In this document: positions 32,010-50,005 of the stretch, piece by piece | Position numbering within the stretch: the stretch's first letter is position 1 | Layout of the letters: every line of letters starts with the position of its first letter | Assembly (NCBI GenBank): GCA_958296135.2 | Contig: CATQHZ020000001.1 | Span: 1,280,001-1,344,000 of the forward strand | Direction: 5' to 3' | DNA length: 64,000 nt | Source of the DNA: an uncultured Poribacteria bacterium | GTDB taxonomy: Bacteria > Poribacteria > WGA-4E > WGA-3G | Notes under the pieces: generated by a model | Told to the model about the DNA's origin: nothing | What the model saw: only the letters and a program-made list of their open reading frames with translations | Database searches by the model: none | Position numbers and translations under genes: made by a program

Positions 32010-33650
32010 ATGTCCAAAAAACCGATCGATCATTATCAACACCGCGACAAGCGCGCGAACAACCCAACGCAGGAACTCAGCGGCTTCGCTGAAGATGCCG
32101 AGACGCAACCCGACACCGTCCGCTACCCGCGCGATACCGCGTTGGACCCGCAGCTCGTCTGGCGCGGCAAAGACGCACAGAATAGCGAGGCACTCAGTGT
32201 GCACGCCGTGCCAATTTACGCGCAGGAGCACATCCAGCCTCAGGCGATTATCGAGGCACTCCGCACGCAAAAATCACAGACCAAACCCGCGCAAACCGAG
32301 CTGTTCTTTGAGGGATTCAACGCGCTAGAATTTGGGCAGCGTATTGAATTCTATCAGCACGAGCAGCATTGGAACAACCGCTTTATCTTGGGCGATTCGC
32401 TCCTCGTTATGAACTCCCTCGCCGAGAAAGAGGGGCTTAAAAGCCGAGTGCAGACGATATACTTCGATCCGCCTTACGGCATCAAATTCGGCAGTAACTG
32501 GCAGGTTAGCACGCGCAAACCGAACGTCGGCGATACGAAAACGGAGGACGTGACGCTCCAACCGGAACAGATCCGCGCGTTCCGAGATACGTGGGAGCTC
32601 GGCATCCACTCCTATTTGGCGTATCTGCGCGACCGGCTCACCGTTGCGCGCGAACTGCTCACCGACAGCGGGAGCATCTTTGTCCAGATCGGCGATGAAA
32701 ACGTCCACCGCGTCCGATGCGTATTAGATGAGGTGTTCGGTGATGAGAACTTTGTCTCCACCATCACGTGGACACGTGGCGGAATGACTTCCTCATCCGG
32801 GCTCGCCGCAATCTCCGATTATCTTTTGTGGTATGCAAAGGATAAGGAGCAGATGAAATATCGGCAGCTCTATATGCAATGGGATGAGCGTGCGCCCGAT
32901 CCGCTCCTTAATTCCTACACCCAAGTTGAATTGCCGGATGGAACACGCCGCGGAATGACAAGTGCTGAGAAGAAAAACCCCGCGCTCTTACCTGAAAACA
33001 GTCGGAGGTTTCAGATTGTCTTGGCATCATCGCAGACTGCTGGAGGGGCTACTGCTAAATACGAATTTGAAGGAAGGACTTTTATCCCTTCACGAGGTAG
33101 AGGCTGGGCGACAAGTCCTGAAGGTTTTGATCGGCTTGCTAAACAGAGTAGGCTTGTTGCAAGAAAAATTACGCTGAACTATGTCCGTTATGCAGGCGAT
33201 TTTCCAGGGCGAGAGATTACGAATCTTTGGACAGACACCGGACGGGGCGGGGCTGGAAAAACCTACGTCGTGGAAACGAACCCCAAAGTCATCCAGCGGT
33301 GTATCCTGATGACGAGCGACCCGGGAGATCTTGTCCTCGATCCGACGTGCGGCAGCGGCACCACCGCTTACGTCGCTGAACAATGGGGCAGACGATGGAT
33401 AACGATAGACACGTCCCGTGTTGCGCTCGCTTTGGCGCGCACGAGACTTATGTCTGCTGTGTATCCCTATTATCAGTTGGCAGATGCGGTTGACATCAAA
33501 CAGGGGTTCGCCTACAAAACCGCGCCGCACATCAGCCTCTCGGATATGGCGAACAACCTTGAGATTGACGACATCCATGCGGCGTATGCACCGAAATTAG
33601 CGGAGATTCGGAATTTACTTAACTCAAGTATAGGTAAGGGGGGGGGGTAA
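32010..33650 (+). CDS. Type III-like DNA methyltransferase Mod1, catalytic N-terminal part (ends at G10 tract)
   Basis: ILGDSL, YFDPPYG (motif IV), TRD, VLDPTCGSGTT (motif I), GRRWITIDTS; beta-class motif order. Confidence 0.93.
   Translation: MSKKPIDHYQHRDKRANNPTQELSGFAEDAETQPDTVRYPRDTALDPQLVWRGKDAQNSEALSVHAVPIYAQEHIQPQAIIEALRTQKSQTKPAQTELFFEGFNALEFGQRIEFYQHEQHWNNRFILGDSLLVMNSLAEKEGLKSRVQTIYFDPPYGIKFGSNWQVSTRKPNVGDTKTEDVTLQPEQIRAFRDTWELGIHSYLAYLRDRLTVARELLTDSGSIFVQIGDENVHRVRCVLDEVFGDENFVSTITWTRGGMTSSSGLAAISDYLLWYAKDKEQMKYRQLYMQWDERAPDPLLNSYTQVELPDGTRRGMTSAEKKNPALLPENSRRFQIVLASSQTAGGATAKYEFEGRTFIPSRGRGWATSPEGFDRLAKQSRLVARKITLNYVRYAGDFPGREITNLWTDTGRGGAGKTYVVETNPKVIQRCILMTSDPGDLVLDPTCGSGTTAYVAEQWGRRWITIDTSRVALALARTRLMSAVYPYYQLADAVDIKQGFAYKTAPHISLSDMANNLEIDDIHAAYAPKLAEIRNLLNSSIGKGGG
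33638..33647 (+). repeat. G10 homopolymer at the Mod1 frameshift junction
   Basis: GGTAA-GGGGGGGGGG-TAAAG; G8 or G11 would fuse the two frames. Confidence 0.95.
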
Positions 33651-34690
33651 AGTGGGAAGAATGGGACATCCCTCAAGAACCCGATTCTTCGTGGAGCGTG
33701 GAGACGCAGCGGTTGCACCAGCAGTGGCACTCTCTCAAGCGCGAGCGGCAGGCGGAGATGGATGCCTCCACTGCGGCGCGCGCTACCCATGAAATTCTCT
33801 ACGATCGGCCGCGTGAAGACCGGAAGCGGACGCGTATAGCCGGTCCGTTTACGGTGGAGAGTTTATCGCCGCACCGCATGCGAGAGGGAGCCGATACCGC
33901 ACCGCCGGTGGCATCGCCGGATTTTCACACGCATATCGTGGAGCATTTGAAGAGTGCGGGCGTGCAGAGTCGCATCAAGGCACAACGGCTGACGTTTGAC
34001 TGGCTGTCGCTGTTCCCCGGCGAGTATCTCCATGCGGAGGGGGCGTACTCAGACGAGAGCGGTGAATCGCAAAGCGTCGCGATTAGCATTGGGCCGCAGT
34101 ATGAAACTGTGGGTAGGCAGTGGATGGAAGGTGCGGCGCGCGAGGCGATGCGGCGCATCCCGAAGTTCAAGCAGCTCATCGTTTTAGGGTTCGCTTTTGA
34201 GGGATACACGGCAGATGAGCGGACGCGCGTCGGAATCCTCCCGATTCTTCCTGTTAAGATGAGTCCGGAGCTGATGATAGGCGAGCTCAAGAACACCGGC
34301 GCGGGCAATCTCTTCATGAACTTTGGCGAACCGGATATAGAAATCCAGCGTCAGCCTGACGACACGTTTGTCGTAAAGTTGTTGGGAGTTGATGTGTTCG
34401 ATGCGCGGCAAGGCTTGGTGCGTTCGGATAACCCTGATGAGATTGCGTGTTGGTTTATTGACACGGACTACAACGATGAGGCGTTCTTCGTGCGGCACGC
34501 CTATTTCACGGGCGCGGACGAACCCTACAAGAAACTCAAGCAGACGTTGGGTGACAACATTGATGAGGCTGCGTGGGAGCGTTTGTATCGGACAGAGAGT
34601 CTTCCGTTTGTGCGGCCTGCCGCCGGCAAAATCGCCGTGAAAGTGATTAATCATTATGGCGATGAGGTGCTGAAGGTTTATGAGGTGTGA
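33647..34690 (+). CDS. Mod1 C-terminal domain, in the -1 frame after the G tract
   Basis: Frame opens at the tract: VKWEEWDIPQEP...GPFTVESLSP...IACWFIDTDY...KIAVKVINHYGDEVLKVYEV, a typical Mod C-terminus; no well-spaced SD. Confidence 0.88.
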   Translation, partial: VKWEEWDIPQEPDSSWSVETQRLHQQWHSLKRERQAEMDASTAARATHEILYDRPREDRKRTRIAGPFTVESLSPHRMREGADTAPPVASPDFHTHIVEHLKSAGVQSRIKAQRLTFDWLSLFPGEYLHAEGAYSDESGESQSVAISIGPQYETVGRQWMEGAAREAMRRIPKFKQLIVLGFAFEGYTADERTRVGILPILPVKMSPELMIGELKNTGAGNLFMNFGEPDIEIQRQPDDTFVVKLLGVDVFDARQGLVRSDNPDEIACWFIDTDYNDEAFFVRHAYFTGADEPYKKLKQTLGDNIDEAAWERLYRTESLPFVRPAAGKIAVKVINHYGDEVLKVYEV

Positions 34691-34702
34691 TTTTTTAGGA
34701 AG

Positions 34703-34845
34703 GAAATCGAGACCAGGAGGTCTCTCCTGCCGGGGAAATCAAGGCCAGGAGGTCTCTCCTACCGGCGGAGGAAATCGAGACCGGGAGGAGGTCTCTCCTA
34801 CCGGGGCAGGAAATCGAGACCGGGAGGTCTCTCCTACTGGGGCGG
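34703..34845. repeat. Tandem array of 4 REP elements
   Basis: GAAATCGAGACCGGGAGGTCTCTCCTAC-like units ending at 34730, 34762, 34801 and 34837. Confidence 0.85.
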
Positions 34846-34865
34846 GCTGTGATTTTTGTCAAAAG

Positions 34866-34894
34866 TTGCATTTCGGCGCGTGATGTGGTATAAT
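34866..34894 (+). promoter_or_regulatory. Internal sigma70 promoter for the ATPase-PIN(-res) unit
   Basis: TTGCAT-17 nt-TATAAT with TG extension, then AAAGGAG SD. Confidence 0.72.
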
Positions 34895-34918
34895 TAAAGT
34901 TAAAGGAGACTGAAAGCG

Positions 34919-36235
34919 ATGATTACGCATATCCGCGTGAAAAACTTCAAGTCGTGGGTTGACAGCGGGGAGGTACGTCTTGCACCGCTGACGGGGTTTT
35001 TCGGGACGAATAGTTCTGGGAAGAGCAGTCTGTTGCAGATGTTGCTGCTGCTGAAGCAGACGATCGGCCGCGAGGACGTGCTGTTTTTCGGTGATGAGTC
35101 TTCGTTGGTGAATTTGGGGAGTTTCCGCGATGTGATTCATGGACATGACACCGATGCTTCGCTAGAGTTAGAATGTGGGTGCCAACCTCAAGAACCACTG
35201 TCCATTGAAGTGTATGGAGAGGAGCCAGACGGTAGTGAGAGGTCTCTCCCGGTGCCTTTTCATCACTTCACTCTTAGCACGTCTATTCATAGAAACAAGG
35301 ATAGTCTCCTTGTTGAGTACCTTCGTTATGGTTTGGACTCGCGTGATGTTCCAGGTATTGAATGGGCGGCGAAGACTGTGTCCTATAAAAATTCGCTTGA
35401 TAAGACAGTGCTAGCAGTTGGGGGTGTCCAGAATTGCTATGGGGTGGCCGCTTCCGGGTCACTCGTTTTACTGCCGCTCACCTCTGCGTTTGAGCATCAA
35501 TTTTCCTGCGTCTATTACCTCGGGCCGGCTCGGGTTACGCCGCAGCGATGTTATCATTGGGAAGGCAGCCATCCGCAGGACACCGGGTTGTGGGGCGATA
35601 AAACGATTGACGCTCTGCTCTCCGCGCGGGTGCTACAACTGAAAACTTCCGATAAAGAAGATGCTGTCCCGATTGAGGAACAGATATCAAAATGGCTCCA
35701 CGAGATGGAGCTTGCCCACTCCTTTTCGCTGAGGCTGAGCCCTAACGGCGATGGTAGGGATTATGAAGTTCGCATCAAAAAAGACAGCGTCAGTCCTGAG
35801 GTAACGCTCGTTGACATGGGCTATGGCTTATCGCAATTTCTCCCGGTGCTCGTTCTCTGTTATTATGCGCCGGAGGGCTCAACACTCATTCTGGAGCAGC
35901 CGGGCATCCACCTGCATCCAAAGGTGCAATCGCAACTGGCGGATTTGCTGATAGAGGTTGTCACGGAACGGAATCTCCAGGTCTTGGTGGAGAGCCACAG
36001 CGAACATCTGCTGACTCGGCTGCAGCTTCGCATCGCGGAAGAAAAGATTGGCGCGGACAAGACTGCCCTCTATTTTTGCGAAAATAAGGAGGGTGTTTCC
36101 GAAATGAAATCGTTGGAACTTGACGAACTCGGAAACATCAAAAACTGGCCGCCAGACTTCTTTGGCACTGTCAGAGGAGACCTTGTTAAAATGACGAAGG
36201 CCCAAATGAAACGTCAGAAGCGAACGGAGGGATAA
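34919..36235 (+). CDS. ABC-type ATPase (AAA_15/AAA_21-like) with DUF3696-like C-terminus
   Basis: IRVKNFKS, Walker A GTNSSGKSS, signature MGYGLSQFLPV, LILEQPGIHLHP, ESHSEH, GNIKNWPPDFF. Confidence 0.9.
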   Translation: MITHIRVKNFKSWVDSGEVRLAPLTGFFGTNSSGKSSLLQMLLLLKQTIGREDVLFFGDESSLVNLGSFRDVIHGHDTDASLELECGCQPQEPLSIEVYGEEPDGSERSLPVPFHHFTLSTSIHRNKDSLLVEYLRYGLDSRDVPGIEWAAKTVSYKNSLDKTVLAVGGVQNCYGVAASGSLVLLPLTSAFEHQFSCVYYLGPARVTPQRCYHWEGSHPQDTGLWGDKTIDALLSARVLQLKTSDKEDAVPIEEQISKWLHEMELAHSFSLRLSPNGDGRDYEVRIKKDSVSPEVTLVDMGYGLSQFLPVLVLCYYAPEGSTLILEQPGIHLHPKVQSQLADLLIEVVTERNLQVLVESHSEHLLTRLQLRIAEEKIGADKTALYFCENKEGVSEMKSLELDELGNIKNWPPDFFGTVRGDLVKMTKAQMKRQKRTEG

Positions 36236-36780
36236 TGGACGCTGTTGTCGTAGATACTAACGTTATCTTGGTTGCGAAAGGGATGGCAGATCAGGCATGG
36301 CCGGCATGCGTCCATACATGCATAGAACGGCTAGACCGGATTGTTGAGGGCTCAGAGAGAGTCGTCATTGATGACAACTGGGAAATCCTCGGCGAGTATT
36401 CGGACTATGAAGAGGACGGTTCAACGACAGCGGCGCGAACCGGCTGGGGATTTTTGGAGTGGTTGATGCGAAACCACGAGAATCCGGAACAGTGCGTGAA
36501 GGTGCATATCACGCCTTTGACAGATGGAACTGGATTTGAAGAATTCCCCACCGATCCGGCATTAAGCGGGTTTGACCCGGCCGACAAAAAATTTATCGCT
36601 GTCGCTGTCGTTTATGAAGACGTGCATCGCCAAAAAGTGCCGGTCTTACAAGCGGTAGATAGCAATTGGTACGGATTCCGCGAGGCATTCTCTCGGAATG
36701 GATTGACAATTGACTTCGTTTGTGAGGATAACCTCCGTCTTTTGTATGAAAGGCGCGGTGAAAGGCGTGCAAAAAACTAA
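36235..36780 (+). CDS. PIN-domain protein
   Basis: VVVDTNVIL, ILGEY, FDPADKKFIAVA, AVDSNW acidic tetrad; TAATG overlap with the ATPase. Confidence 0.8.
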   Translation: MDAVVVDTNVILVAKGMADQAWPACVHTCIERLDRIVEGSERVVIDDNWEILGEYSDYEEDGSTTAARTGWGFLEWLMRNHENPEQCVKVHITPLTDGTGFEEFPTDPALSGFDPADKKFIAVAVVYEDVHRQKVPVLQAVDSNWYGFREAFSRNGLTIDFVCEDNLRLLYERRGERRAKN

Positions 36781-36833
36781 CCGTTTGTATTGGTTTTGAA
36801 CTAAATGATGCTGTCTATGGAGAAACCACTCAC

Positions 36834-39809
36834 ATGCCAAAAGTGAACATAGAAAACCCTGTCATCAACAGTCCGTTTGACGAACCGCAACGCCACTTCA
36901 AATTCGATGAACGCGGCATCACCGAAGACATCGTCAACGGAAGACGTAGAAGTGAATACTTCATCCCGGTGCCGAAACCGAGGCAGCAGCCAAAAGAGGT
37001 TCAGACGCAGCTGGAACTGCACGTGCCAGAACTCCGAGAGGCGAACGCCTTCATCAACCGGGTGCGCGAAGAAGTCAGTGCTTGGCGGACAAGCGGCTAC
37101 CCCGGCGTAACGGACACAACGAAACGCTTACTGAAACATTGGAACGACACAACCCGAGAGCTCCGGTTGTTTTTCTGCCAACGCGAGGCTGTGGAAACCG
37201 CTATCTATATCCACGAAGTGGCAGATCCGCGGCGAAGTGGTTCAATTCATAGCATCCTCACGAAGACAAATGAGGATACGAATCCTGGGCTTTTTCGCAT
37301 CGCTTTCAAGATGGCGACGGGGAGTGGCAAAACTGTCGTGTTGGCGATGCTCATCGTCTATCATACGTTGAACAAAATCGCTGCGCCGCGCAATCCCCGC
37401 TTTTCCGATGCGTTTCTTGTTGTCACGCCGGGGCTGACCATCCGTGACCGGCTCCAAGTGCTACGCCCGGAACACTCGGACAACTACTACGAGGCGATGA
37501 ACCTACTGCCGCCCGAAGACAGGAATGCACTTGCCCACGCGAAGATTGTCGTCACGAACTACCACGCGTTCCAACATCGGAAGAATGCCGACGTGAGTCG
37601 GCTCGGTAGGAAACTCATCGGTGAGGGCGGAGCCCAGCTTGATGAAACCGGCGACGAGATGGTTAGCCGGGTTTGCCGCGCGTTCAGCCGGAAGCGGAAC
37701 ATTATTGTCCTCAACGATGAGGCGCACCACTGCTATCGCCCGAAACAGGCGACGAAGATTCGGGCATCTGAGGCAGACAGCGCGCGGCTGTGGATAAGCG
37801 GCCTGGGGGCAGTGCAAGCGAAACTCGGCATCAAAACCGTTTACGATTTATCGGCGACACCTTTCTTCCTCAGCGGTTCCGGCTATAGCCAAAAGTTACC
37901 GAACGGGCAGCGACTCACGGAAGGCGTGCTGTTTCCGTGGGTTGTCTCTGATTTCGCGCTTATTGATGCGATTGAATGCGGCATCGCCAAGATACCGCGT
38001 GTCCCTGTTGCAGACGATGCGATGACTGGCGAGGCACCTATCTATCGCAATCTCTGGAACGTGATCGGGAAAAAGTTGCGTAAAAGAGCGGTAGGCGAGG
38101 GCCCGCAGTTGCCCGCTGAGTTAGAAACTGCGCTCAGAAGCCTCTACGAAAACTATGAAGGCGCGTATCAGCAGTGGGAGAAAAAACCGGGAGACTTGAC
38201 ACCTCCCGTAATGATTCTCGTTTGTAACGACACGCGCACCTCCAAACGTGTCTACGATTGGATTGCCGGTTGGGAGAAGAAGGACAACGCCGGTGGCACC
38301 GTGGTTGTTCCCGGGAACCTCCCTATTTTCAACAACGAAGTCAACGGCGCGTGGAGCGAGAAGCTGAATACGCTTATCATTGATAGCAAGCAGTTAGAGT
38401 CCGGCGAGGCACTCAAAAGCGCGTTTAAGAAAGCCGCGCAGACCGAAATTTCGCAGTTCAAGCGTAGTCGCAACGACGAGAATGTTACCGACGAAGCCCT
38501 TCTGCGTGAGGTGATGAACACTGTCGGGCAAAAGGGAAAACTCGGTGAGCAGATTAAGTGCGTTGTCTCTGTGTCTATGCTGAGTGAGGGCTGGGATGCG
38601 AAACGGGTGACGCATATCCTCGGTGTTCGCGCGTTCAGCACGCAGTTGCTCTGCGAACAAGTCGTTGGCAGAGGGTTGCGCCGTTCCAGTTACGACACCG
38701 AACTGTCGACGCTTAACGTCAACGGCGAGGAAATTCCGTTAGAAACGTTTCCACCGGAATACGCCGCTGTCTACGGTGTACCGTTCTCGTTTATTCCCGC
38801 GACCGGCATTGGCCGCACGCCACGACAGCGGCCGATTACCTTTGTAGAGGCACTGCAGGAGCGCGCTGCGTGTGAAATCACGTTTCCGAACGTGGTGGGG
38901 TATCGCCGTCACGTGCCGCCTGAAAAGCTGCGGGCTGTTTTCACCGAAGAGTCGCGGTATCAAGTCTCAACTGCGGAGATTCCTAGCCGTATAGAAGTCA
39001 GCGATATCACCGGCAAAATTATTGAAGGCGAAGCCCTCTATTCAACAAGATTTCGCGTTCAGGAAACCGAATTCCACATTGCAAGGGTGCTTCTGGAACA
39101 TTACTTTCGGGACGATGATGGCGATGTCCGACATTGGCTTTTCCCGCAGTTGCTCGGTATGACGCGGCGGTGGCTGAAAGAGTGTGTTAACTACAAAGAC
39201 AACACTTATCCGCAGTGCTTTCGTATTGACGAGATTGCGCGAAAAGCGGCGCACCGTATCAATAGTGCCATCCTCCGTGCCGAACGTCTCCACAGCAACG
39301 AGGTGTCAGCGCGGCCACTGCCCTTGCTTCCGATACTGGGCGCGCCTCTCGGTTCCACGCGAAACGTCGCGTTTGAGACGGCCAAACCGGTATGGAGCAC
39401 ACATCCGGAGAAGTGTCACGTTTCGCATGTCGTTGCGGACACGGAGTCGTGGGAGCAGAAAGCGGCGGCGGCATTGGAGCAGATGGATGAAGTGCGTGCT
39501 TACGTGAAAAATCATCACTTAGGTTTCACGATTCCGTATCTCACTCACAACTTGGAGAAGCGGCACTACGTTCCGGATTTCATCGTCCGTATCCAAGACG
39601 GTGAAGACGTTGTCAACCTGATGCTTGAGGTATCCGGGGTTGAACGCGAGGATAAACGTCAGAAGGTGGATACCGCCAAAAACTTGTGGGTGCCGGCGGT
39701 GAACAACCACGGCGGATTTGGGAAGTGGGCGTTTTTGGAAATTACAGATCCGTGGAATATCCAGAGCGACATCCGCGCCTTTAGGCTATCCTCTCAAGTT
39801 CGGTGTTGA
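36834..39809 (+). CDS. Type III restriction endonuclease Res1 (SF2 helicase plus nuclease)
   Basis: FFCQREA, KMATGSGKT, LNDEAHH, LSATP, MLSEGWD, EQVVGRGLRR, YVPDF...MLEVSG. Confidence 0.93.
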   Translation: MPKVNIENPVINSPFDEPQRHFKFDERGITEDIVNGRRRSEYFIPVPKPRQQPKEVQTQLELHVPELREANAFINRVREEVSAWRTSGYPGVTDTTKRLLKHWNDTTRELRLFFCQREAVETAIYIHEVADPRRSGSIHSILTKTNEDTNPGLFRIAFKMATGSGKTVVLAMLIVYHTLNKIAAPRNPRFSDAFLVVTPGLTIRDRLQVLRPEHSDNYYEAMNLLPPEDRNALAHAKIVVTNYHAFQHRKNADVSRLGRKLIGEGGAQLDETGDEMVSRVCRAFSRKRNIIVLNDEAHHCYRPKQATKIRASEADSARLWISGLGAVQAKLGIKTVYDLSATPFFLSGSGYSQKLPNGQRLTEGVLFPWVVSDFALIDAIECGIAKIPRVPVADDAMTGEAPIYRNLWNVIGKKLRKRAVGEGPQLPAELETALRSLYENYEGAYQQWEKKPGDLTPPVMILVCNDTRTSKRVYDWIAGWEKKDNAGGTVVVPGNLPIFNNEVNGAWSEKLNTLIIDSKQLESGEALKSAFKKAAQTEISQFKRSRNDENVTDEALLREVMNTVGQKGKLGEQIKCVVSVSMLSEGWDAKRVTHILGVRAFSTQLLCEQVVGRGLRRSSYDTELSTLNVNGEEIPLETFPPEYAAVYGVPFSFIPATGIGRTPRQRPITFVEALQERAACEITFPNVVGYRRHVPPEKLRAVFTEESRYQVSTAEIPSRIEVSDITGKIIEGEALYSTRFRVQETEFHIARVLLEHYFRDDDGDVRHWLFPQLLGMTRRWLKECVNYKDNTYPQCFRIDEIARKAAHRINSAILRAERLHSNEVSARPLPLLPILGAPLGSTRNVAFETAKPVWSTHPEKCHVSHVVADTESWEQKAAAALEQMDEVRAYVKNHHLGFTIPYLTHNLEKRHYVPDFIVRIQDGEDVVNLMLEVSGVEREDKRQKVDTAKNLWVPAVNNHGGFGKWAFLEITDPWNIQSDIRAFRLSSQVRC

Positions 39810-40035
39810 GGGACAGGCCCTCAACCTACGGTTTCGTTGGAGTCTTGCCTGCTAGCCGTATCGCGAGGGCCTGTCCCTCGCGATATTCAGGTTAAGTTCG
39901 GTGTTGAGGGACAGGCCCTCAACCTACGGTTTTGTTGGTGTCTTTGCGGTGTTGAGGGACAGGCCCTCAACCTACGGTTTTGTCGGTGTCTTCGGTGTTG
40001 AGGGACAGGCCCTCAACCTACGGTTTCGTTGGTGT
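39801..40035. repeat. REP array: 4 copies of CGGTGTTGAGGGACAGGCCCTCAACCTACGGTTT plus one inverted variant
   Basis: Units end CCTAC at 39829, 39927, 39975 and 40021; internal palindrome GTTGAGGG/CCCTCAAC. Confidence 0.9.
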
Positions 40036-40046
40036 TTTCACCGTAA

Positions 40047-41408
<1,362 letters not shown>

Positions 41409-41894: not shown

Positions 41895-41982
41895 TCCGAT
41901 TCGCTAAACGTTACTTTAACCGTTTCGCGAGGGAAAACCTGTCCCTCGCGAAAGTTTGATTCTTTACAAAGAAGGAGTTTTC

Positions 41983-43089
41983 ATGCTACATCAATTTTTT
42001 GTCAACGCGCCTGTCCGGAAATGCCCGCTAACCTGCGGACTTTTGGCGGCGTTCATGCTTATGACAGTCACCTTGTTTTCAGGGTGCGAGCGGGTGCAAC
42101 AAGTTGTTGCCCCTCCGGAGAGTGTTTCCACAGACGCGGTGCGTTCCTGCACCGATGGCACGCGCGTCCTCAACGTCGGCTTCTATGCGTTTTTTGCGCC
42201 GGTAAGTTATAGTGCCGACGAAGACCCGGGCTCCCCCGAATTCAACACGCATCGCGGTTACGAGGCAGACTTGCTGACGGCACTGGAGGCGATGGAAGGT
42301 GCTGGGCTATCGTTTAAACGGACGGCTATCCCGGCTTGGGACGGCATCTGGCTCAAATCAACTGAACCGGCGTTTGATATGATCGGCGGTGGGATTACGA
42401 TTCTTGATTCTCGGACGCGCGATGCGGATGGCACGCCGCGCGTCACCTTTACGTCTGGACATATCAACTTCCAGCAGTCACTTCTGGTGCGCGCCGAGGA
42501 TGCGGAGCGTCTTGCGACGCATGCAGACTTAACGAGCGATGTCCGAGTGGGTGCTCTTCCGGGGACGACTGGCGAGAACCGCCTGCTCCAGTTGACGGCT
42601 CTCACCGATGCCGGTGGGATTCTCGCTGCGGGTACGCGGGTTGAGACACCGCAAGGCGCAGTGGTTGCCGATGGCACGGATGCTTACGTTATCCAAGCTT
42701 CCGGTGCGACGCCGAATCTGGAGGGACGCACGCATCTCTATCCGCCTTCTGAGAACATGCCGCAAGTCGTCTATCTTGGAAGCGAATTGGGTGAATCCGA
42801 GTTGCTGGCGGCACTTGATGCGGGTGAGATAGAGGCAGTTGCCCGGGGCGGCATTGGAAACGGCGAGGTTGCGGCGGATTCCGGGGGCGCGCTTGTCGTT
42901 ACGGCGCTTGATGAACAGGTAGAATACGGCGGTTTCACCTTCGCGTTAGAAGACGCTGAGCTCGCCGCCTGTATTGATGAGAAGATAAACTACCTCACCA
43001 ATAACCGTGCGCTCGGGTATGAGGCGTGGCTGGCGGACCCGGGCATCTTCATGAAGCGCGCTGAAATGTGGAGCGCAGAGATGCAATAG
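41983..43089 (+). CDS. Periplasmic substrate-binding lipoprotein (family 3-like)
   Basis: Lipobox LFSGC, LNVGFYAFFAPVSY, GYEADL, GGGITILDSR, VGALPGTTGE; AAGGAG SD. Confidence 0.8.
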   Translation: MLHQFFVNAPVRKCPLTCGLLAAFMLMTVTLFSGCERVQQVVAPPESVSTDAVRSCTDGTRVLNVGFYAFFAPVSYSADEDPGSPEFNTHRGYEADLLTALEAMEGAGLSFKRTAIPAWDGIWLKSTEPAFDMIGGGITILDSRTRDADGTPRVTFTSGHINFQQSLLVRAEDAERLATHADLTSDVRVGALPGTTGENRLLQLTALTDAGGILAAGTRVETPQGAVVADGTDAYVIQASGATPNLEGRTHLYPPSENMPQVVYLGSELGESELLAALDAGEIEAVARGGIGNGEVAADSGGALVVTALDEQVEYGGFTFALEDAELAACIDEKINYLTNNRALGYEAWLADPGIFMKRAEMWSAEMQ

Positions 43090-43122
43090 ACGCGCGCTGT
43101 TTTTCTGGCAGGCGAGGGAAAC

Positions 43123-46100
43123 CTATCCCTCGCCTGATTTCAACGCAATGCCGGCTCTCTCAAACATCACTTCCAAATACGACTTCCGCTTAGAAAACGG
43201 GCTGGTAGAGCCGTCTTCCATTTTCTCGTGCCAATTCAAGCGGAGAATGTGAGAATCTATCATATTCTCGGCAATCCATGCATCCGATTTTCCCTTCCCG
43301 AGCTCAGAACTGTCTCGGAGAAGGATGAACGAATGGAGACAGAACGTTCGACCTTGCGTTGCTGCTAGCCGCTTCTCAAGCGTCGTCAGCGTCTTGTCCT
43401 CCGATTTACGCGCCAGTCTCACTTTTGGATGATAACGAAGCGTTGTATCGTCAATGATGGCGCGCTGTCCCTTCGGATCGATGAAGAGGATGTGCGTTAC
43501 CTCGTGCGTGGTATCAATTGCCCACAGCACAAAATCCGGAAAATAGCTGCCCTCATCGCTCTCTAAATAGATACCGATTTTCCCAACGTTCCGCATCAGA
43601 TAGAATTCGTATCGTTCGCTGTTACGAGAAAATCGCCGGAGATACTCCATCAAGTCTTCGACGAATTTCTTTTCGCCTGCATTTAGTCTGTCCGGTGAGA
43701 TTTTGACATTGTTGAGTCGGGACAGGGATGTCCCTCCTCTTGTTCGGGACAGGGATGCCCCTTCTACCCAGACCGCCGGGTCTAACAGCAGCGGCTCGTA
43801 AATATGCCGATGATGCTTTCCCAACGACAACACCAGCGATTTCTGAATCTCTGACTCTGGATTCTCACGTGTGTTGCGTGCGGTATCCACCGCCGCAAGG
43901 AACGCCTCGTATGCCTCGCGCGTTTGGAATTCCTTTGTCACCGAGTATTCATAGATAAAATCTTTGCGCGCTAACGGTTCGTAGACATAGTTCGCGCGGT
44001 TGATGTGCGCGTTGATGCGGTTCCGCAGTTTACGGATGACATCAATTGCCACGCGGCGATTGAGCCGGTCTGTCCATGCAATCAGGTCATCGGCGGGCTT
44101 CTGATAGCGGATTTCCTCGATTAACGCGAGCAAATCGTCTATCGTCGGCATCTGCTTGTCGGCATAGATTTGCAACTGATTTTTCTGTGCTTCGCGATGA
44201 ATCACGGCGGCGAGCCCTGCACGATTCAGATAGCGGCGATACCGTTCATTGGATTGCCGGAGCTCTTCGTAAACATTCGGTGCGTGCTGTGTCTTATCGG
44301 TTCGGTAATCCAACGTCTGCACGCGCCAATTGTTGAGCGTGCCGCTTTTTTCGATGCAGTTAGCCGCGGTAGGCGCGCTTTCCAAGCGCGCACGGGTATC
44401 AAGATAGGTATACCGAATGTTGCCATTCCTGATAAAAACACGCTTGATACCCCTATTCGCGCTGCCTGACTGTTTGAAGATAGGCAATTTGTGCCGGTAG
44501 TCCTCAAAGTCAATAGACGTGTTTGCATCCACTCGAAAGAAGGTTGATGTTACCGGTACCTTAAAGGTATGAAACCGCGGTACACCGCCTTCATGAACCT
44601 CCTTAATAAATCTTTCAAGGTAACTGCGCTGCAAGCTGAAAACAGTCAACGTTTCCAATTTCCTAATGGCGGCTTCCTTGTCTTGGGCGAGGAGGTAATA
44701 ATTGTCATTGTGGGCAAGATAACGCCGTTTGCCGTTGCTGCCTTTTCCGCGGAGCCGTACGCCGCGTCCGAAAATCTGAATAATCAGGTTGCCCTTGGAG
44801 TGCCCCAAATTAATCAGATCGATGACAGAGAGGCGATAGGAGTTCCATCCCTCTGCAAACTTCCGACTGCCGATCAGGACGTTGATGGGACTGCCTTCGT
44901 CGTCAAGGTTTTCAAAGCGAAGGCGTGAAGTTGTGATTACCTCCTCGCGCTTTTCAATGCGTGAGTTTTCAATGCTGTTGTAAAACCGCAGTCCATCGCC
45001 GACGTTAATCATCCCCCACTTTTCGCCTTCGCCGTAGGAGAGGAGCAGTTCGTTGTTGTTTTCAGGAGTGCGCGCGACAACGAGCGGCCCGATGATGTCT
45101 CCGCCGAAAACGGAACGGAGTCGCTGGCGTTCTGCCTCTGTCAGGGCCGCGAGAAAATCCAACACCTTTTGGATGTCCGACACCTCATCGTTTTCGCCTT
45201 CCTTGTCGGGATTCTCCACCGTGTGTCCCATAAACGCCATCAAGGGCCTGTGATACGTCAGATCGATGTCGATTTCTTCACTTTGGCGTAGCCTTTTGAA
45301 GGTTTGCAACTTGTCTTCCATCACGTGGAAACATTCGTTCAGGTTATCCCGAATTTCTGTGTCGGCATCGGCGACTTGATCTGCGGCGATGGGTTTGAAA
45401 AAATGGTCCTTCCCGTATCCGTCGCCGTAGAATCGTGCGTAGTCGTAGCGGTAGATGATGGCGTTGTCGTATGCCTCTTTCAGTTCCTTCGCGACGTTGT
45501 GGAAGGTGGCGGAGTACTCGAAGAGGAAGGAGGAACCAACGTTGAGCCGGCTGCGCAGTTTTCGGAATTCACCCGATTGCTTACTGCTCAGGCCGATGTG
45601 TGCTTCGTCCACCAAGATCAGCCTGCGAACGCGTTCGTCTTCCGATAGGCGGAAATAGTCGTCTGGTTTCTGCAGGAGAGCCTGTGTGGTGTTGATTGTC
45701 AGTTCCAACCGATTGTTGTAAACCTCGTTGAGTTTGCGCACGTAAGGTTCTAACTCGCGCCGATGCTGTTGAATGAGTTCGGCGAGCGGCGTTGTCAAAA
45801 AGAGTTGGACGCGGTAGTCCTCTTTTTCACAGAAATGGTGAAGGTATTGGAGGATGTTGAGGTGCATGACGAGGGTTTTCCCGCTGCCAGTCGCCATCCA
45901 ATACGCGAGCATATTTTTGCCGTTCGGTGCCCCGGGTGCTGCCGCCGCGTCCGACAAGAAACACTCGGTGAAAAGCAACGCCAGTATCTGGTAATACCGG
46001 AGTTTGAAATTCTGCTCTGTCACGTTGTTGTATTGTTCAAGGAAATCCTGAATTTTCTCTAACGGTTCGGCGGGGAGGCCTAACCCCCGGTCGTATCCCT

Positions 46101-46179
46101 CGATTGCGTATTTGATACCGTTGTCCGAGGTGTCGATTCCGTTAAGGATTTCTTGTTCATAAGTTTGATAGCGTGTCAT
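43123..46179 (-). CDS. Type III restriction endonuclease Res2 (SF2 helicase plus PD-(D/E)XK nuclease)
   Basis: WMATGSGKT, LVDEAH, EYSATF, FAEGWN, QIFGRGVR, YFPDF...FIDPKG; GAGGA SD before ATG 46179. Confidence 0.92.
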   Translation of the reverse strand: MTRYQTYEQEILNGIDTSDNGIKYAIEGYDRGLGLPAEPLEKIQDFLEQYNNVTEQNFKLRYYQILALLFTECFLSDAAAAPGAPNGKNMLAYWMATGSGKTLVMHLNILQYLHHFCEKEDYRVQLFLTTPLAELIQQHRRELEPYVRKLNEVYNNRLELTINTTQALLQKPDDYFRLSEDERVRRLILVDEAHIGLSSKQSGEFRKLRSRLNVGSSFLFEYSATFHNVAKELKEAYDNAIIYRYDYARFYGDGYGKDHFFKPIAADQVADADTEIRDNLNECFHVMEDKLQTFKRLRQSEEIDIDLTYHRPLMAFMGHTVENPDKEGENDEVSDIQKVLDFLAALTEAERQRLRSVFGGDIIGPLVVARTPENNNELLLSYGEGEKWGMINVGDGLRFYNSIENSRIEKREEVITTSRLRFENLDDEGSPINVLIGSRKFAEGWNSYRLSVIDLINLGHSKGNLIIQIFGRGVRLRGKGSNGKRRYLAHNDNYYLLAQDKEAAIRKLETLTVFSLQRSYLERFIKEVHEGGVPRFHTFKVPVTSTFFRVDANTSIDFEDYRHKLPIFKQSGSANRGIKRVFIRNGNIRYTYLDTRARLESAPTAANCIEKSGTLNNWRVQTLDYRTDKTQHAPNVYEELRQSNERYRRYLNRAGLAAVIHREAQKNQLQIYADKQMPTIDDLLALIEEIRYQKPADDLIAWTDRLNRRVAIDVIRKLRNRINAHINRANYVYEPLARKDFIYEYSVTKEFQTREAYEAFLAAVDTARNTRENPESEIQKSLVLSLGKHHRHIYEPLLLDPAVWVEGASLSRTRGGTSLSRLNNVKISPDRLNAGEKKFVEDLMEYLRRFSRNSERYEFYLMRNVGKIGIYLESDEGSYFPDFVLWAIDTTHEVTHILFIDPKGQRAIIDDTTLRYHPKVRLARKSEDKTLTTLEKRLAATQGRTFCLHSFILLRDSSELGKGKSDAWIAENMIDSHILRLNWHEKMEDGSTSPFSKRKSYLEVMFERAGIALKSGEG

Positions 46180-46249
46180 CGGTTTATCCTCGGATGCGCC
46201 GCGAGCGGGCTGGTTGCCGGGAGCCAAATCCACGCATAAGGCGACCTGC

Positions 46250-46450
46250 TTATGCGAAGCAACACAGGCATTTTTTGTAGGCGTAACGGTTTTCGACCTG
46301 GACACGCAGCTGCGCGCTGTATCGCGTCGCATTGCTGAGCATCTGGTCATCGGTTGTTAAAAAGATGTCAGCATTGCCGAATTCAGCACAAGCAATATGC
46401 AAGGCATCATAGGGCTTAAATCCCAACGATTCCAGTTTCGGTGAGTCGGC
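46250..46450 (-). pseudogene. PIN-domain (VapC-like) gene remnant, C-terminal half only
   Basis: LESLGFKPYDALHIACAEFGNADIFLTTDD...VENR; no N-terminal DT(N/C) strand upstream. Confidence 0.7.
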
Positions 46451-46518
46451 TGAGTGCCAACCCGACATCAATAATTCTATCACATTTCTGGCCAAATTGC
46501 CAGAGGAAAAATCTGCGC

Positions 46519-47196
46519 TTACAGAGATGTCTCCTCCCACACCGTGCCCGTGTCAAAATCGGCTGTGGTGATGAGATGCACCTCGCGCAGATCGGCGTGT
46601 TGGAGCAAGGCATCCTGGTCTGCATCGGAGTTCACGTCTAATCGCCGCACGCCTGCTAACCGCGGGTCTGCCAGGATCTTCAACAACTGCGCTGTGTCGT
46701 TTGTATCATCGGTGACGTTGCGGAAGACTACCAAGCGTTGTGAGCTTTTGACGACGCGGTAGGTTCGCGCGCCATTGAGACTAGGGGGCTCTCCTACGGG
46801 GGATAATCGAGACCGGGAGGTCTCTCCTACGGGAGGGGAGTCGAGACCAGGGGTTTCGCCTACGGGGGAGTCGAGACGAGAGGGCTCTCCTACGGGGGAT
46901 AATCGAGACCGGGAGGTCTCTCCTACCGGGGAGCGAGACCGGGAGGGCTCTCCTACTGCAAGATCGAAGCGCAGGCGGCGTTCAATTGGGAGCCCTTTGA
47001 GATAACAGTAGGACTCCACGATGTCCACAATGCCTTCGGTGCTAGCCTTGCCGTAGGTGATGCTGTTGGAAAACGGCGCACGTAAGTCTAGCATCAGCCG
47101 AATCTGCTGTTCCTCCGGCCGATAGAGGTATGTGATAGGAATTCGGGATTGGAAATCGCTATGGATAGTTGAATTGTTAAATTTTGACGGGGGGGG
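46519..47196 (-). CDS. Mod2 C-terminal domain, in the +1 frame after the C tract, containing an in-frame REP array
   Basis: Frame open from the tract: PPPSKFNNSTIHSDFQSRIPITYLYRPEEQQIRLMLDLRAPF...VDIVESYCYLKGL...LVVFRN, resembling Type III Mod C-termini. Confidence 0.8.
   Translation of the reverse strand, partial: PPPSKFNNSTIHSDFQSRIPITYLYRPEEQQIRLMLDLRAPFSNSITYGKASTEGIVDIVESYCYLKGLPIERRLRFDLAVGEPSRSRSPVGETSRSRLSPVGEPSRLDSPVGETPGLDSPPVGETSRSRLSPVGEPPSLNGARTYRVVKSSQRLVVFRNVTDDTNDTAQLLKILADPRLAGVRRLDVNSDADQDALLQHADLREVHLITTADFDTGTVWEETSL
46776..46957 (-). repeat. Six tandem REP copies inside the Mod2 C-terminal frame
   Basis: CCTAC ends at 46797, 46830, 46863, 46893, 46926 and 46956; translate as VGE(P/T)SRSR/LDSP units. 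Confidence 0.92.
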
Positions 47197-50005
47197 TCAA
47201 CGTTAAGTTGTTAAGCGCGTCTTCATACTGCTCTAACCGTTGATACTTAACGATGCCGACGGTGCCATCGATTTCCTGCAGGGGATTCGGTTTTCCGTCG
47301 CGCCAATTTTCGGAGAACATGGCGCGGCGGATGCGTTCCTTCAGAGTGTTTTCAAAGTAGTCGCCCACCTCAACGAGGATGAATTTGCGGTTGCCATTGT
47401 CCGCCTTGTTGAGTTTCAGTACGGCGTGGCCGGTGGTGCCGCTGCCGGCGAAGAAGTCAAGCGTTGTCCCTTTTCCATCGGGTGTGACTGCCCAGACGAG
47501 TTTTTCGTATAGCCCGACAGGATGGGAATAGGGGAAGCTGAGCCCGAGAGCATCCATTCTATGTTTGCCTTTTTCTCCGGAAGGAATTACGGATGCTAAT
47601 TCGCTGACTAAACGCTCCTTCAAATACCATTTCTGCTGAGGTTGACTGGATTCATCAGGTCCAAAAACAATCAGGTTTTTCGCTAATAACCCTTGCATAA
47701 ATTCTGGACTGTTAGACCATCCGTTCGCCGGAACAGGACACGGTTTCTTGGTGGTTGGATGAATTAGCGGTTTAAAATATTTCGGGTCGGTGCGGCGTTC
47801 CGGTGCTCCCATGTGGACGTTTCTATACACGTGCCCATCATCGTCGATCTCCGAAAAAGTTCGTTCGCCGCCGCTCAAATCGCGTTTGCTCCTCAGCAAA
47901 TCTTTAAACGCTTTGCGGCATTCCTCAGTGGGACCACCGTGCTGTTTTATCAATTCGGCTGCTTTATCAAGGATCCAGCGGCGATTAGGAGGATTCACTT
48001 GAAGTTTTATATTCCCCTTGGACTGACAAATGACATATTCGTGTTGTGTAGCTATTGTTTTTGTACCGCCCCCTGGATTTCGCTTGTCCCAGATAATAGT
48101 TCCCTGATTCTGCAGCGGAAGTTGATTGAACACCTGAAACAGGTTCTCATATTCGTTCTCGTCAATATGGCAAAGGATGCAACTACTTTCCGGTGCCATC
48201 AATTGTTCGGCGAGAGAGAGGCGATTTTCCATCATCGTCAACCAGCTCGCGTGCTGATAATCGTTTTTGTATAGAAAACCGCTCGTGTTGGTGTTGTAAG
48301 GCGGATCGATGTGGACGCACTTTATCCTGCCTCGGTATTTCTCCATCAGCAGCTCCAACGCTTGGAAGTTCTCGCTGTTGAGGAGCAGCCCATCTGTTTC
48401 TGCCTCTAAATTGTCAAACAGCGCGAGCAACGTATCCACGAAGTCTGCGTCAAAATGCCGTGTGTCCAGCGGTAGCGTCGGAGGTAGTCCGTCAAGCATG
48501 GGGAATTGCCCCGTAATATCAACGCCGAAAATGTTCCGCCATTCTGCGAGTTGGGCATCGTTGCGGAGAATCTGCGAGATGAGCGTTTCCCGCTGTGCGG
48601 TGTCATTTTTCGTCGCCTCGGCGATTTTCCCCACCGAGATGAGATAGTCTGTTGTGATAACCTTTTTCTTCATGAGAAACAGGCTCTTTTGGAACGTTTC
48701 AACGGCGACGAGCAGCTTGATGATTTCGTCAGTGACGCTTCGGAACGCTTTCGCCACGGCAAACGTCGGGTTTTCGGGACTGAGGTTGAGGAGCGTACCC
48801 AGGTCTCCCAAGATGCCGTTCTGGATATAACGGCGTTGCTCGGTGAACAGGAATTTCCCCAGGGCTTTGTGAATGAAGTAGTCCGAGTCCATGCCGACAA
48901 AGAACCGATTCAAGTTTTTGTCAAACGCATGGAAACGGCGAACGGTTGGGCGCGTCTGGAGTGCTTCCTGCCTGAGGGTTTTGTTTCGGCCGAGTTCGCG
49001 AAAGTCCGAATGTTCGGCGAGTTTCTCGGTGTATTTCTTCAGGCTGATTCGTAAGTTGCGGACACCCCGGATTTGGCCGCCCTGCACCTCGTGAGACTTA
49101 TCTCCCAAGTCCTTAAAGAGTGGTTTTCCTTGTTCGCCACTTTTCCGCGGGCGTTCATAGAGGTAGATGTCAACGTCTTCTGGTTCGCCAAAAATCTGCG
49201 TGTTCATCTCCCGATAGAGTTCTGTCTTCGGCGTTGAGGTCTCCGCTAAGTGCAGAATGACGCGCCAGGTGGGCTCCACAGCGTCGGGTTCTGGCGGCTC
49301 AATTCTACCGAGGCGATAGTGTTTGAAGTCGTCGCGGTTGTTATTCTGTGCGGTGCCGTTCGCCGGCTTTCCCTCCAGTCGGTATTCGATGCGTTTGCCT
49401 TCGATTTTAAAGGCGACGCTATTGAAGCCGGTGGCGGTTTTGACGTAGTAACTGTCGCGGCATTTCCAGTGGAATAGGGTATCGGTGCCGGCGTAGTCTG
49501 CTTCATTGGGGTAATCGATTTGATAGAGCGCGGTGCTCCTGTTGTTGTAGCCGAAGTCGCCATCTCGGTAATAGCGTTCAAAGAAGTTGTGGATGTGGTT
49601 ATAGACACCTGCGGCGAGTTTCGCTTTAAGCGCGCCCGGGCCGGTTTCCAGCGGTGCGCCGAGGTCGCCGCGTTCTTCCTCTTGCAGAAAATTGATAAGG
49701 TTTTGACGGTTTTCGGGGATAGCCTCAAGCCATTCTCGCTGCCGGCGGCCGCCTTCTTCCCGGACGTATTCCTTGAGTTCGCCGAGTTGACTGTCCCAAA
49801 GGGTGCCCGTGACCTGGGCGAGCGCGTTCTCGACGATGTCTGTCAATGCGTCGTCAATAAAACGGTTGACTTCGGCGCGCTTGATTTTGAGGATGCGGAA
49901 GATGCCGAAATCCAGTTCATTTTGCGCGAGGTGGAACATCTCGCGGAGTTTGTTGCGCAGGATGTTTAGTGCTTCGGTTGTGGGGTTCGGTTGTTGCGTT
50001 GGCAT
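47177..50005 (-). CDS. Type III DNA methyltransferase Mod2, catalytic part (ends just after C8 tract)
   Basis: ELDFGIFRI, LFHWKCRDSYYVK, DYFIHK, SENFQAL, HIDPPYN, TLDFFAGSGTTGHA, YQRLEQYEDALNNL. Confidence 0.93.
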   Translation of the reverse strand: MPTQQPNPTTEALNILRNKLREMFHLAQNELDFGIFRILKIKRAEVNRFIDDALTDIVENALAQVTGTLWDSQLGELKEYVREEGGRRQREWLEAIPENRQNLINFLQEEERGDLGAPLETGPGALKAKLAAGVYNHIHNFFERYYRDGDFGYNNRSTALYQIDYPNEADYAGTDTLFHWKCRDSYYVKTATGFNSVAFKIEGKRIEYRLEGKPANGTAQNNNRDDFKHYRLGRIEPPEPDAVEPTWRVILHLAETSTPKTELYREMNTQIFGEPEDVDIYLYERPRKSGEQGKPLFKDLGDKSHEVQGGQIRGVRNLRISLKKYTEKLAEHSDFRELGRNKTLRQEALQTRPTVRRFHAFDKNLNRFFVGMDSDYFIHKALGKFLFTEQRRYIQNGILGDLGTLLNLSPENPTFAVAKAFRSVTDEIIKLLVAVETFQKSLFLMKKKVITTDYLISVGKIAEATKNDTAQRETLISQILRNDAQLAEWRNIFGVDITGQFPMLDGLPPTLPLDTRHFDADFVDTLLALFDNLEAETDGLLLNSENFQALELLMEKYRGRIKCVHIDPPYNTNTSGFLYKNDYQHASWLTMMENRLSLAEQLMAPESSCILCHIDENEYENLFQVFNQLPLQNQGTIIWDKRNPGGGTKTIATQHEYVICQSKGNIKLQVNPPNRRWILDKAAELIKQHGGPTEECRKAFKDLLRSKRDLSGGERTFSEIDDDGHVYRNVHMGAPERRTDPKYFKPLIHPTTKKPCPVPANGWSNSPEFMQGLLAKNLIVFGPDESSQPQQKWYLKERLVSELASVIPSGEKGKHRMDALGLSFPYSHPVGLYEKLVWAVTPDGKGTTLDFFAGSGTTGHAVLKLNKADNGNRKFILVEVGDYFENTLKERIRRAMFSENWRDGKPNPLQEIDGTVGIVKYQRLEQYEDALNNLTLTPPVKI
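47189..47196 (-). repeat. C8 homopolymer (G8 on +) at the Mod2 frameshift junction
   Basis: Coding strand TTGA-CCCCCCCC-GTCAAAATTTAA; C7 or C10 would fuse the frames. Confidence 0.93.

Follow-up and report, generated by a model that had tools for sequence, protein, structure and literature searches.

Two Type III mod genes interrupted by G/C homopolymers in a Poribacteria genome as candidate contingency loci

Known phase-variable systems and the two Poribacteria loci

Phase variation of Type III restriction-modification (RM) systems through simple sequence repeats (SSRs) in the methyltransferase gene, mod, is established, as is phase variation of protein C-termini, and the two loci described here fall within this known phenomenon. 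They lie at positions 32010..50005 of a 64,000-nucleotide (nt) stretch of DNA from an uncultured Poribacteria bacterium (GCA_958296135.2, CATQHZ020000001.1, positions 1,280,001-1,344,000); this whole stretch is called the window below. In each locus a long G or C homopolymer behind the methyltransferase (MTase) core breaks the reading frame of mod, and the res gene is intact. Judging from sequence comparisons, both mod genes are probably slipped-strand contingency loci; their tracts belong, as ordinary cases, to the 78 long G/C tracts of the genome.

According to the relevant parts of the survey by Atack et al. (2018, PMC5909438), SSR-driven phase variation of Type III mods also occurs in environmental species, with up to four such genes per genome. 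The Poribacteria genes resemble the surveyed mods in having a G/C tract within the open reading frame (ORF), a tract length that varies among relatives and a frameshift that truncates Mod, and the genome resembles the surveyed ones in carrying several such genes in a host-associated organism. They differ in belonging to a sponge-symbiont lineage and not to a pathogen, in the number of tract-bearing genes (about 26, against up to four Type III phasevarions), and in the position of the tracts after the catalytic core, with both res genes intact; switching and an associated regulon are putative in the present case. An earlier note on this DNA had started from the premise that the repeats of phase-variable mods usually lie upstream of the catalytic region, a rule that is looser in those parts of the survey than the note made it.

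Homopolymers late in a gene that alter the C-terminus and leave most of the protein unaffected are described for Helicobacter canadensis (Snyder et al. 2010, PMC2823697). The changes there mostly concern a few residues, whereas a whole region of 220-346 amino acids (aa) would be gained or lost here, and the parts of that paper considered here describe no RM gene with a C-terminal switch logic in H. canadensis. The MmyCI mod of Mycoplasma mycoides, as presented in part of the report by Algire et al. (2012, PMC3498834), has a TAA directly after its repeat when out of frame, as does the first of our tracts, and is active with one repeat number and inactive with the other; its repeat is an AG dinucleotide, unlike the first tract. 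The large Type IIG RM gene Cj0031 of Campylobacter jejuni has a poly-G tract (PMC4889913, in part) comparable to those of two split Type IIG genes on the chromosome contig (C1) of the present genome, at C1:39277 and C1:171076, and represents a different enzyme class from both Mod loci. The EcoP15I Mod2Res1 complex (PDB 4ZCF; Gupta et al. 2015, PMC4490356, in part) shares with our loci the β-class order DPPY ... FxGxG and a C-terminal α/β domain after a linker. Departures from EcoP15I are a 560-aa N-terminal extension in the Mod of locus 2 (Mod2), a C-terminal region of the locus 1 Mod (Mod1) that is three times larger and is predicted to contain a nuclease-like fold and a β sandwich, cargo between mod and res, and a Res1 of the BPTD_3080 family.

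The two mod-res loci converge on eno and a DivIC/FtsB gene. Both encode a β-class N6/N4 Mod with DPPY before the recognition region and the S-adenosylmethionine (AdoMet) motif after it, beside a gene for a predicted superfamily-2 helicase with a C-terminal endonuclease, which are features of Type III systems; such systems would also be expected to cleave DNA in an ATP-dependent way at two unmethylated sites in inverse orientation and to hemi-methylate one strand. Mod1 and Mod2 match different PADLOC/NCBIfam models, as do Res1 and Res2, so the members of each pair are dissimilar. The same layout (mod1, res1, then mod2 on the opposite strand) is found in a genome of the same genus, G002.

Mod1 is encoded on the forward strand. 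Its N-terminal part (32010..33650, 546 aa) comprises an N-terminal region, DPPY at residue 153 and an N6_N4 methyltransferase core with an inserted recognition region; Pfam N6_N4_Mtase is matched at 147-474, and the AdoMet motif I region aligns at 426-486. Tract 1, a G10 (33638..33647), is out of frame, and the TAA directly 3' of it is the stop of the 546-aa ORF. The C-terminal part (33650..34690) is in another frame, open for 346 codons, and a change of +1 or -2 in the tract fuses the two: with G11 or G8, the open stretch is 897-898 codons long, or about 893 aa from the ATG. Both pieces match a single PADLOC model, MTase_III PDLC03632, at positions 58-543 and 614-982 of 983, and similarity of Mod1 to EcoP15I Mod is detectable at E 8.8e-17.

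Mod2 lies on the reverse strand. The 942-aa N-terminal part (47177..50005) has the long extension followed by an EcoP15I-Mod-like core with DPPY at 567 and FAGSG at 852; it matches PADLOC model PDLC03646 at positions 310-877 of 1057, and its residues 577-882 align to EcoP15I Mod 163-471 (E 8.5e-36). Tract 2 (47189..47196, C8 on the coding strand) is out of frame and lies 10 nt before the stop of the 942-aa ORF. The frame that follows it (46519..47196) is open for 222 codons and encodes a conserved domain of about 145 aa with a repeat insertion. A change of -1 or +2 fuses both parts, C7 or C10 giving an open stretch of 1172-1173 codons, about 1161 aa.

The earlier note had described this arrangement, with convergent loci of dissimilar Mod and Res around eno-ftsB, and layout and models bear it out. 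It had also named the two tracts as the longest G/C runs of the window; an inventory of all such runs of at least 7 returned these two and a G7 (21968-21974) that is in frame within the 670-aa CcmF ORF, as the note had said. That both tracts are out of frame while both res genes are intact is supported by the ORFs, by the match of Res1 to NF046055 and by the alignment of Res2 with its orthologues, and the open-frame lengths after tract correction reproduce the lengths of about 893 and 1161 aa proposed for the long forms. The placement of the tracts in AT-rich sequence 3' of the methyltransferase core likewise agrees with the motif positions and the composition of the flanks, the 40 nt on each side of the tracts having 30-47.5% GC compared with 53-55% for the genes.

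Relatives show that each split pair is one gene. In the family's other genera, Mod1 orthologues are encoded by one uninterrupted frame (898-925 aa), which reads ...IGENWEEWEVP... at the junction and has no tract there. The C part is present in 73 of 80 Mod1-family loci across phyla (the remaining 7 run off their contigs) and is in the frame of the N part in 69 of these 73. Likewise, Mod2 orthologues in other genera are single frames of 1093-1138 aa, without the tract. Together with the 983-position model shared by both Mod1 pieces, these same-frame and single-frame orthologues indicate that the two parts belong together in both cases. Two distant members of the Mod1 family (L111 and L138) have the C part in the same frame and a short open frame at the junction (498 and 557 codons), with an interruption that is not a homopolymer.

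Close relatives carry tracts of different lengths at the same codons, a check proposed in the earlier note that came out in its favour. For Mod1 the tract is G10 in the window, G9 in the genome's own paralogue (C1:246436), G8 and G11 in G002, G4 in G001, G8 in G007, which belongs to another genus, and G7 in locus L080; the G4 copy is in frame and encodes 904 aa. Three of the four out-of-frame loci among the 73 are from Poribacteria and have G7, G8 or G11 at the junction, and outside Poribacteria the junctions of the 80 loci contain no run above 6. For Mod2 the tract is C8 in the window, C7 in G002 (in frame, giving 1160 aa), C4 in G001 and C9 in G009 (out of frame), and in G015 two copies carry a C9 elsewhere, 30 codons further upstream. 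Scans of metagenomes with exact flanks (a 23-mer and a 27-mer) returned no matches. Downstream of the tracts, substitution ratios indicate purifying selection and no decay: dN/dS for Mod1-type genes is 0.09-0.15 after the tract and 0.09-0.17 before it, at dS 0.6-1.4, and for Mod2-type genes 0.13-0.32 in the C part and 0.08-0.17 in the N part. Variation in tract length combined with purifying selection downstream fits reversible slippage and not decay.

In the mechanism we propose, a hypermutable G or C homopolymer would have expanded in the short stretch that links the methyltransferase core with the C-terminal region, where runs of Gly or Pro would be tolerated. Slipped-strand mispairing at replication would alter its length, so that each gene would alternate between encoding a full-length Mod (about 893 or 1161 aa) and a version that ends at the tract (546 or 942 aa), here called the cut form, which is the assembled state of both genes. 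If EcoP15I is a guide, the missing region may include the Res-docking domain, in which case the cut state would at least have restriction off, and it is plausible on the same grounds that the long form gains a domain working with Res. Cargo and res genes further downstream may in addition be expressed less, since 0.7-1 kb would go untranslated in the cut state.

Several observations weigh against contingency loci. Support for tract length comes from assembled contigs only, those of four (X1-X4) of eight listed sequencing runs, the four coming from one sample and one study. Contigs of X1 and X3 cover 46905-50005 with no gaps and an X2 contig covers 46905-47317, all agreeing with G8 at tract 2, which counts in favour of the contingency reading; none of the contigs listed bridges tract 1, a region where they are broken by the paralogue repeat. 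The assembly also contains artefact-like stretches, a G-rich one at C1:3588040-3588121 (G/T-rich and of low complexity) and a C88 run on contig C4, which lay its homopolymer lengths open to suspicion. The C8 of Mod2 is below the G[9] threshold of Atack et al. (2018), who call a mod phase-variable when a mononucleotide tract of at least 9 lies inside the ORF; the G10 of Mod1 reaches it, and so does the C9 at the Mod2 site of the G009 orthologue. Finally, only 1 of 11 Mod1- and Mod2-type junctions with a tract of at least 7 is in frame (4 of 21 genome-wide), while a neutral switch predicts about one third, which hints at selection for the cut state, at read-through by slippage or at consensus error.

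A genome-wide repertoire of G/C tracts

G/C runs in the genome (G000) number 568 at length 6, 62 at length 7, 28 at length 8, 44 at length 9 and 10 at length 10. The chromosome contig has 78 runs of at least 8, with a peak at 9, a count that leaves out the artefact-like stretch at 3588040-3588121. Runs of at least 8 split long ORFs in 17 cases and are in frame in 4; the corresponding figures for control runs are 7 and 269 (G/C6-7) and 82 and 1008 (A/T6-8). The change that restores the frame is +1 in 11 genes and -1 in 6, and corrections in both directions speak against a uniform calling bias.

When 40 ORF stretches abutting tracts were scanned with Pfam, 18 of them (17 loci) had DNA methylase or RM domains of the N6_N4_Mtase, Eco57I/MmeI, Type ISP and DUF1156 families, 6 had LTD, cadherin, fn3 or LRR domains, 4 had others (GNAT, sulfatase, ligA, ABC) and 12 had no family. 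PADLOC put names to six of these 12: two Type IIG enzymes, two Type III Mod pieces, HmaB and a weak Type II methylase. At least 26 tracts lie in RM or methylase genes, Mod1, its paralogue and Mod2 among them; this total includes five copies of a six-copy methylase family that were recognised by near-identical flanks only. Eight of the genome's long tracts are in giant surface-protein genes. Further places with tracts on the chromosome include 2822657 and 4205321, besides those named above and below.

The earlier note had described the tracts as one design shared by the two loci; this design is not peculiar to them, as at least 26 RM or methylase genes have tracts and have them at varied positions. 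The boundary between the MTase and the C-terminal domain (CTD) is the site in Mod1, its paralogue, Mod2 and a classical Type III mod at C1:1866091, whose G9 separates 522 from 151 codons and whose C piece corresponds to positions 552-701 of a Mod model 708 positions long. Other Type III-like methylases have the tract in the N-terminal domain, for example at C1:3678661 right after ...EKLNRLLHIHE, or before the MTase domain, as in a Mod2-family paralogue (C1:2642094) and at C1:3905222. In Type IIG enzymes it lies between the nuclease and MTase parts, and in one Type ISP enzyme before the specificity domain. The common placement rule for methylase tracts is inter-domain segments, as is expected because the runs must code for Gly or Pro.

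Among the methylases is a family of six near-identical N6_N4 copies (C1:195552, 601424, 670244, 1453394, 2953827 and 4145681) with a G9 or G10 about 130 codons in; the G10 copy alone is in frame. A C10 is also found at the very start of the open frame of ligA (NAD-dependent DNA ligase; C1:3112693), which is unexpected for a housekeeping gene. Richness in G9 runs is uneven within the family, several single-contig genomes having 0 matches and others 50-198. The 210-contig assembly G001 has G9-G12 tracts, three of them splitting ORFs; 18 of 30 loci were examined there, and the other 12 repeat the same tracts.

A third group of tracts belongs to a family of small ORFs. The element was found at 19 places by blastn (e.g. 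C1:4898201, 520591, 3766609, 3209899, 853308 and 2576553) and consists, on the C strand, of a promoter-like site TTGACA-N17-TGnTATAAT, an ORF of 56-65 codons, GTTAA and a hairpin with a T run. The products begin with VNTQFR... or VNQRMQ..., and the C tract is at the 3' end of the ORF (..TPPP..). Members of one subfamily precede LTD/cadherin surface-protein genes by about 600 nt, which suggests a tract-controlled leader. Rfam returned for the small-ORF loci only a sub-threshold Chlorobi-1 match (20.7 bits; gathering score 50).

A composite motif, TTAAC-N4-GT-N3-10-G8, occurs in 22 of 61 related genomes, all in the window's own family (21 of 36 others there), and in 0 of 24 genomes of three other families; a control with the reversed pattern found nothing anywhere. 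Most copies of the motif are the small-ORF element, on the opposite strand. As a shared slippage module or mobile cassette in the mod genes it was rejected: TTAAC there represents Leu-Asn codons, and that of Mod1 is homologous to ATGAAC in tract-less orthologues. A TTGACC-16-AACAAT match across tract 2 was also set aside as a promoter, since it is not significant; sigma-70-like sites show no enrichment (15, against 11.2 +/- 3.2 in shuffles).

The concentration of the tract set in RM/methylase, giant surface-protein and small-ORF genes fits a host-associated bacterium that hedges both its defence and its surface.

Alternative readings of the split genes

Of the readings that compete with on/off contingency loci, the strongest is unlikely, though plausible as a special case with a structural precedent. 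It holds, as the earlier note had proposed, that the tracts switch coupling: the short Mod would stay an active dimeric methyltransferase without Res docking and the long Mod would restore restriction, so that DNA is never unmethylated when restriction returns. As described in parts of Gupta et al. (PMC4490356), EcoP15I Mod has an N-terminal domain (NTD, 14-60), an MTase domain (62-262 and 390-516), a target recognition domain (263-384) and a CTD (539-644); it dimerises through the NTD and MTase domains and is a stand-alone methyltransferase, and the CTD of one subunit, ModA, contacts Res extensively. From the alignment of Mod2 577-882 to EcoP15I 163-471, tract 2 (about aa 940) falls in the EcoP15I linker 517-538 between MTase and CTD. 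The same boundary is where the G9 of a third, unrelated Type III mod (C1:1866091) lies, and the Mod2-type tract of G015 arose independently nearby in the same segment. The cut state of most tract-bearing copies (1 of 11 in frame) would be easier to tolerate if protection persisted, and C-terminal phase variation has already been described (PMC2823697, in part).

Other tract-bearing genes of the genome do not share this logic. In at least eight Type III-like methylases the tract is close to the 5' end, and in others it precedes the MTase domain; tracts so placed can yield only a full OFF state. The Type ISP enzyme is cut before its specificity domain. As Gly and Pro runs are expected to survive only between domains, position alone is no proof of the logic. 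Stable loss of the C part was seen in 0 of the 73 Mod1-family loci with a visible C part, and the out-of-frame Type III mod of M. mycoides is inactive, going by part of that report (PMC3498834) and comparing the two irrespective of repeat position.

Structural models of the C parts bear on the same question. For Mod2, the model (of the G002 copy; predicted local distance difference test, pLDDT, 70) aligns weakly to two solved Type III Mod CTDs, 4zcf_B 536-644 (Z 4.5, root-mean-square deviation (rmsd) 3.2, 77 residues, rank 11) and 6k0w_B 511-594 (Z 4.4), both standing among nuclease-fold matches and with scores within the noise range of the aligner; the best match in a wide structural search had Z 5.8. 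The Mod1 model (pLDDT 71, predicted template modelling score 0.40) is predicted to consist of a long helix, then disordered sequence, then an α/β domain of PD-(D/E)XK type at 91-212 and an FN3-like sandwich at 223-346. The α/β domain matches NucS (2vld_B; Z 10.4, rmsd 2.8, 102 residues), 1y88 (Z 9.7) and the LlaBIII nuclease domain (Z 8.6), and the sandwich has matches at Z 7-8.4. Because E130 alone among the acidic residues of 91-212 is nearly invariant, the nuclease-like fold is probably inactive as a nuclease. Foldseek against the PDB gave no match at E <=0.001 for either C part, PDB sequence searches with both gave nothing meaningful, and a profile search with the Mod1 C part gave only VtrC (E 0.0076). 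A complex prediction for Res1 1-654 with the Mod1 C part scored 0.00 and 0.00 and weighs neither way.

Consensus error is a quite unlikely explanation. It would mean that the majority tract lengths are really in-frame ones, shifted in the assembly by miscalled homopolymers, so that there would be tracts and no OFF states. Several sequencing technologies are prone to errors in long G/C homopolymers, and the assembly has its artefact-like G-rich stretches. The high share of out-of-frame tracts (17 of 21 coding long tracts) would follow, purifying selection downstream is equally expected of simply intact genes, and alignment of the X2 and X4 contigs to the window leaves a few gaps, not all of them with a listed position. 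Miscalling, however, does not easily account for corrections in both directions (+1 in 11 cases, -1 in 6), and the assembly is not generally frameshifted, as A/T8 runs are in frame in 26 cases and split in 5, and G/C6-7 runs in 269 and 7. Contigs of three runs repeat the G8 at tract 2, though they may be the data behind the assembly itself. Four other assemblies, including the many-contig G001, also have out-of-frame tracts, and in G002 an in-frame C7 at tract 2 stands beside an out-of-frame G8 at tract 1.

We think it improbable that slippage acts at expression, with RNA polymerase or the ribosome slipping so that short and long Mod are made from one DNA length in some ratio, and with no heritable switch. 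Transcriptional slippage on long homopolymers is established in bacteria and offers a precedent, and nearly all tract-bearing copies are out of frame in the DNA yet selected as coding. The shift required is not constant, though, being +1 in the window and G007 and -1 in the paralogue and G002, and differences in tract length between near-identical copies and between species show instability at the level of DNA.

Decay, with both mods killed by frameshift and the systems being lost, is very improbable. In its favour are the out-of-frame state of both mods, the invasion of the Mod2 C part by repeat units and the truncation of the PIN gene next to it. Against it, the frames behind the tracts stay open over 346 and 222 codons at dN/dS 0.09-0.32, the repeat insertion is in frame (30 bp per unit), both res genes are intact and the breaks fall exactly at the hypermutable tracts.

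Neighbouring genes and significance of the tracts

In locus 1, copies of a palindromic repeat (GAGACCNGGAGG; 34709..34830) follow Mod1, and a 67-aa ORF at 34680-34883 is probably this repeat array and no gene. Two cargo genes come next on the forward strand, one for an AAA_15/AAA_21/DUF3696 ATPase (34919..36235; PADLOC HEC-03B) and one for a 181-aa HEC-03A protein (36235..36780), which is PIN-like by its N-terminal motif and weak leads only. The protein starts with MDAVVVDTNVILVA, which we take to be a PIN-type start (DTNV-type motif); it is below the PIN family threshold (Pfam PIN_3 E 0.47, 11.7 bits, cut-off 27), and in the ESM Atlas it meets one PIN_3 cluster, at rank 19 with a score of 0.92. 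Res1 (36834..39809, forward strand, 991 aa) is an intact helicase-nuclease of the BPTD_3080 family that matches the NCBIfam restriction endonuclease NF046055 end to end (1080 bits, cut-off 800); it has Pfam ResIII/DEAD domains, and its residues 874-946 weakly match a Type III endonuclease model.

In locus 2, on the reverse strand, the corresponding place holds a 5'-truncated PIN gene remnant (46250..46540), the last ~70 residues of what is a full 236-aa gene at the same place in G002. The intact G002 gene passes Pfam PIN at 26.6 bits, and the fragment scores 18.5 bits (E 0.003, cut-off 23.6) over profile positions 87-114 only; the PIN-like proteins of the two loci are unlike in sequence. Of the PIN cargo that the earlier note had placed before both res genes, the ATPase with a PIN-like gene in locus 1 therefore stands, with that protein below the PIN threshold, and locus 2 has a truncated remnant only. 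Res2 (43123..46350) is an intact DEAD/ResIII helicase-nuclease that matches PADLOC REase_III PDLC03654 (E 3.3e-51), its nuclease assignment following from family models. It aligns to orthologues over residues about 50-1075; the alignments begin no earlier than residue ~48-56, so translation probably starts 3' of the listed ATG (46350). The extra 5' codons (46197-46350) overlap the PIN remnant. The mod-res gap ranges from 56-60 nt (G009, G031) to 5.7 kb (G002) in the Mod1/Res1 family and from 27 nt (G009) to about 6 kb (G004) in the Mod2/Res2 family, and the mod-to-res interval is a variable cargo slot in both.

Within the Mod2 C part, a palindromic 30-bp repeat unit is present in 5.7 copies (46777..46956), in frame at 10 codons per unit, between two conserved halves. 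The palindromic repeat, with core GAGACCNGGAGGTCTC, has 79 copies on the chromosome contig, including the arrays in the Mod2 C part and after Mod1. At both arrays, and also at 39810-40409, contig depth rises sharply. Among the other contigs, C4 has a C17 run beside its C88 (7759-7864), and C2 (144 kb) has 36.8% GC, compared with 54.4% for the chromosome, and may be foreign.

What may be new in these data is how large the repertoire of this sponge-symbiont lineage is, together with the recurrent MTase-CTD position and the small-ORF family; our literature searches found, among the matches listed, no paper joining Poribacteria with phase variation, homopolymers or contingency loci. A bolder conclusion, unlikely to hold as a whole, would be that this Poribacteria family has the largest homopolymer phasome yet seen for defence genes (about 26 methylase and RM genes, with surface proteins and the small-ORF family), in which at least three unrelated Type III Mods are switched at the MTase-CTD boundary by a restriction-only switch that keeps the chromosome protected.

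For annotation, the tracts carry a warning that "frameshifted" methylases in metagenome-assembled genomes of this kind should be neither discarded as pseudogenes nor silently repaired. The three tracts at the MTase-CTD boundary bear on the question of whether Type III restriction can be off with protection on, and such a switch would avoid the self-restriction that ON/OFF switching of mod brings with it. Should the switching prove real, contingency-locus biology would extend from small-genome pathogens to an uncultured sponge-symbiont lineage, and dozens of switching RM genes would give a population mosaic of restriction and methylation types against sponge-associated phages.

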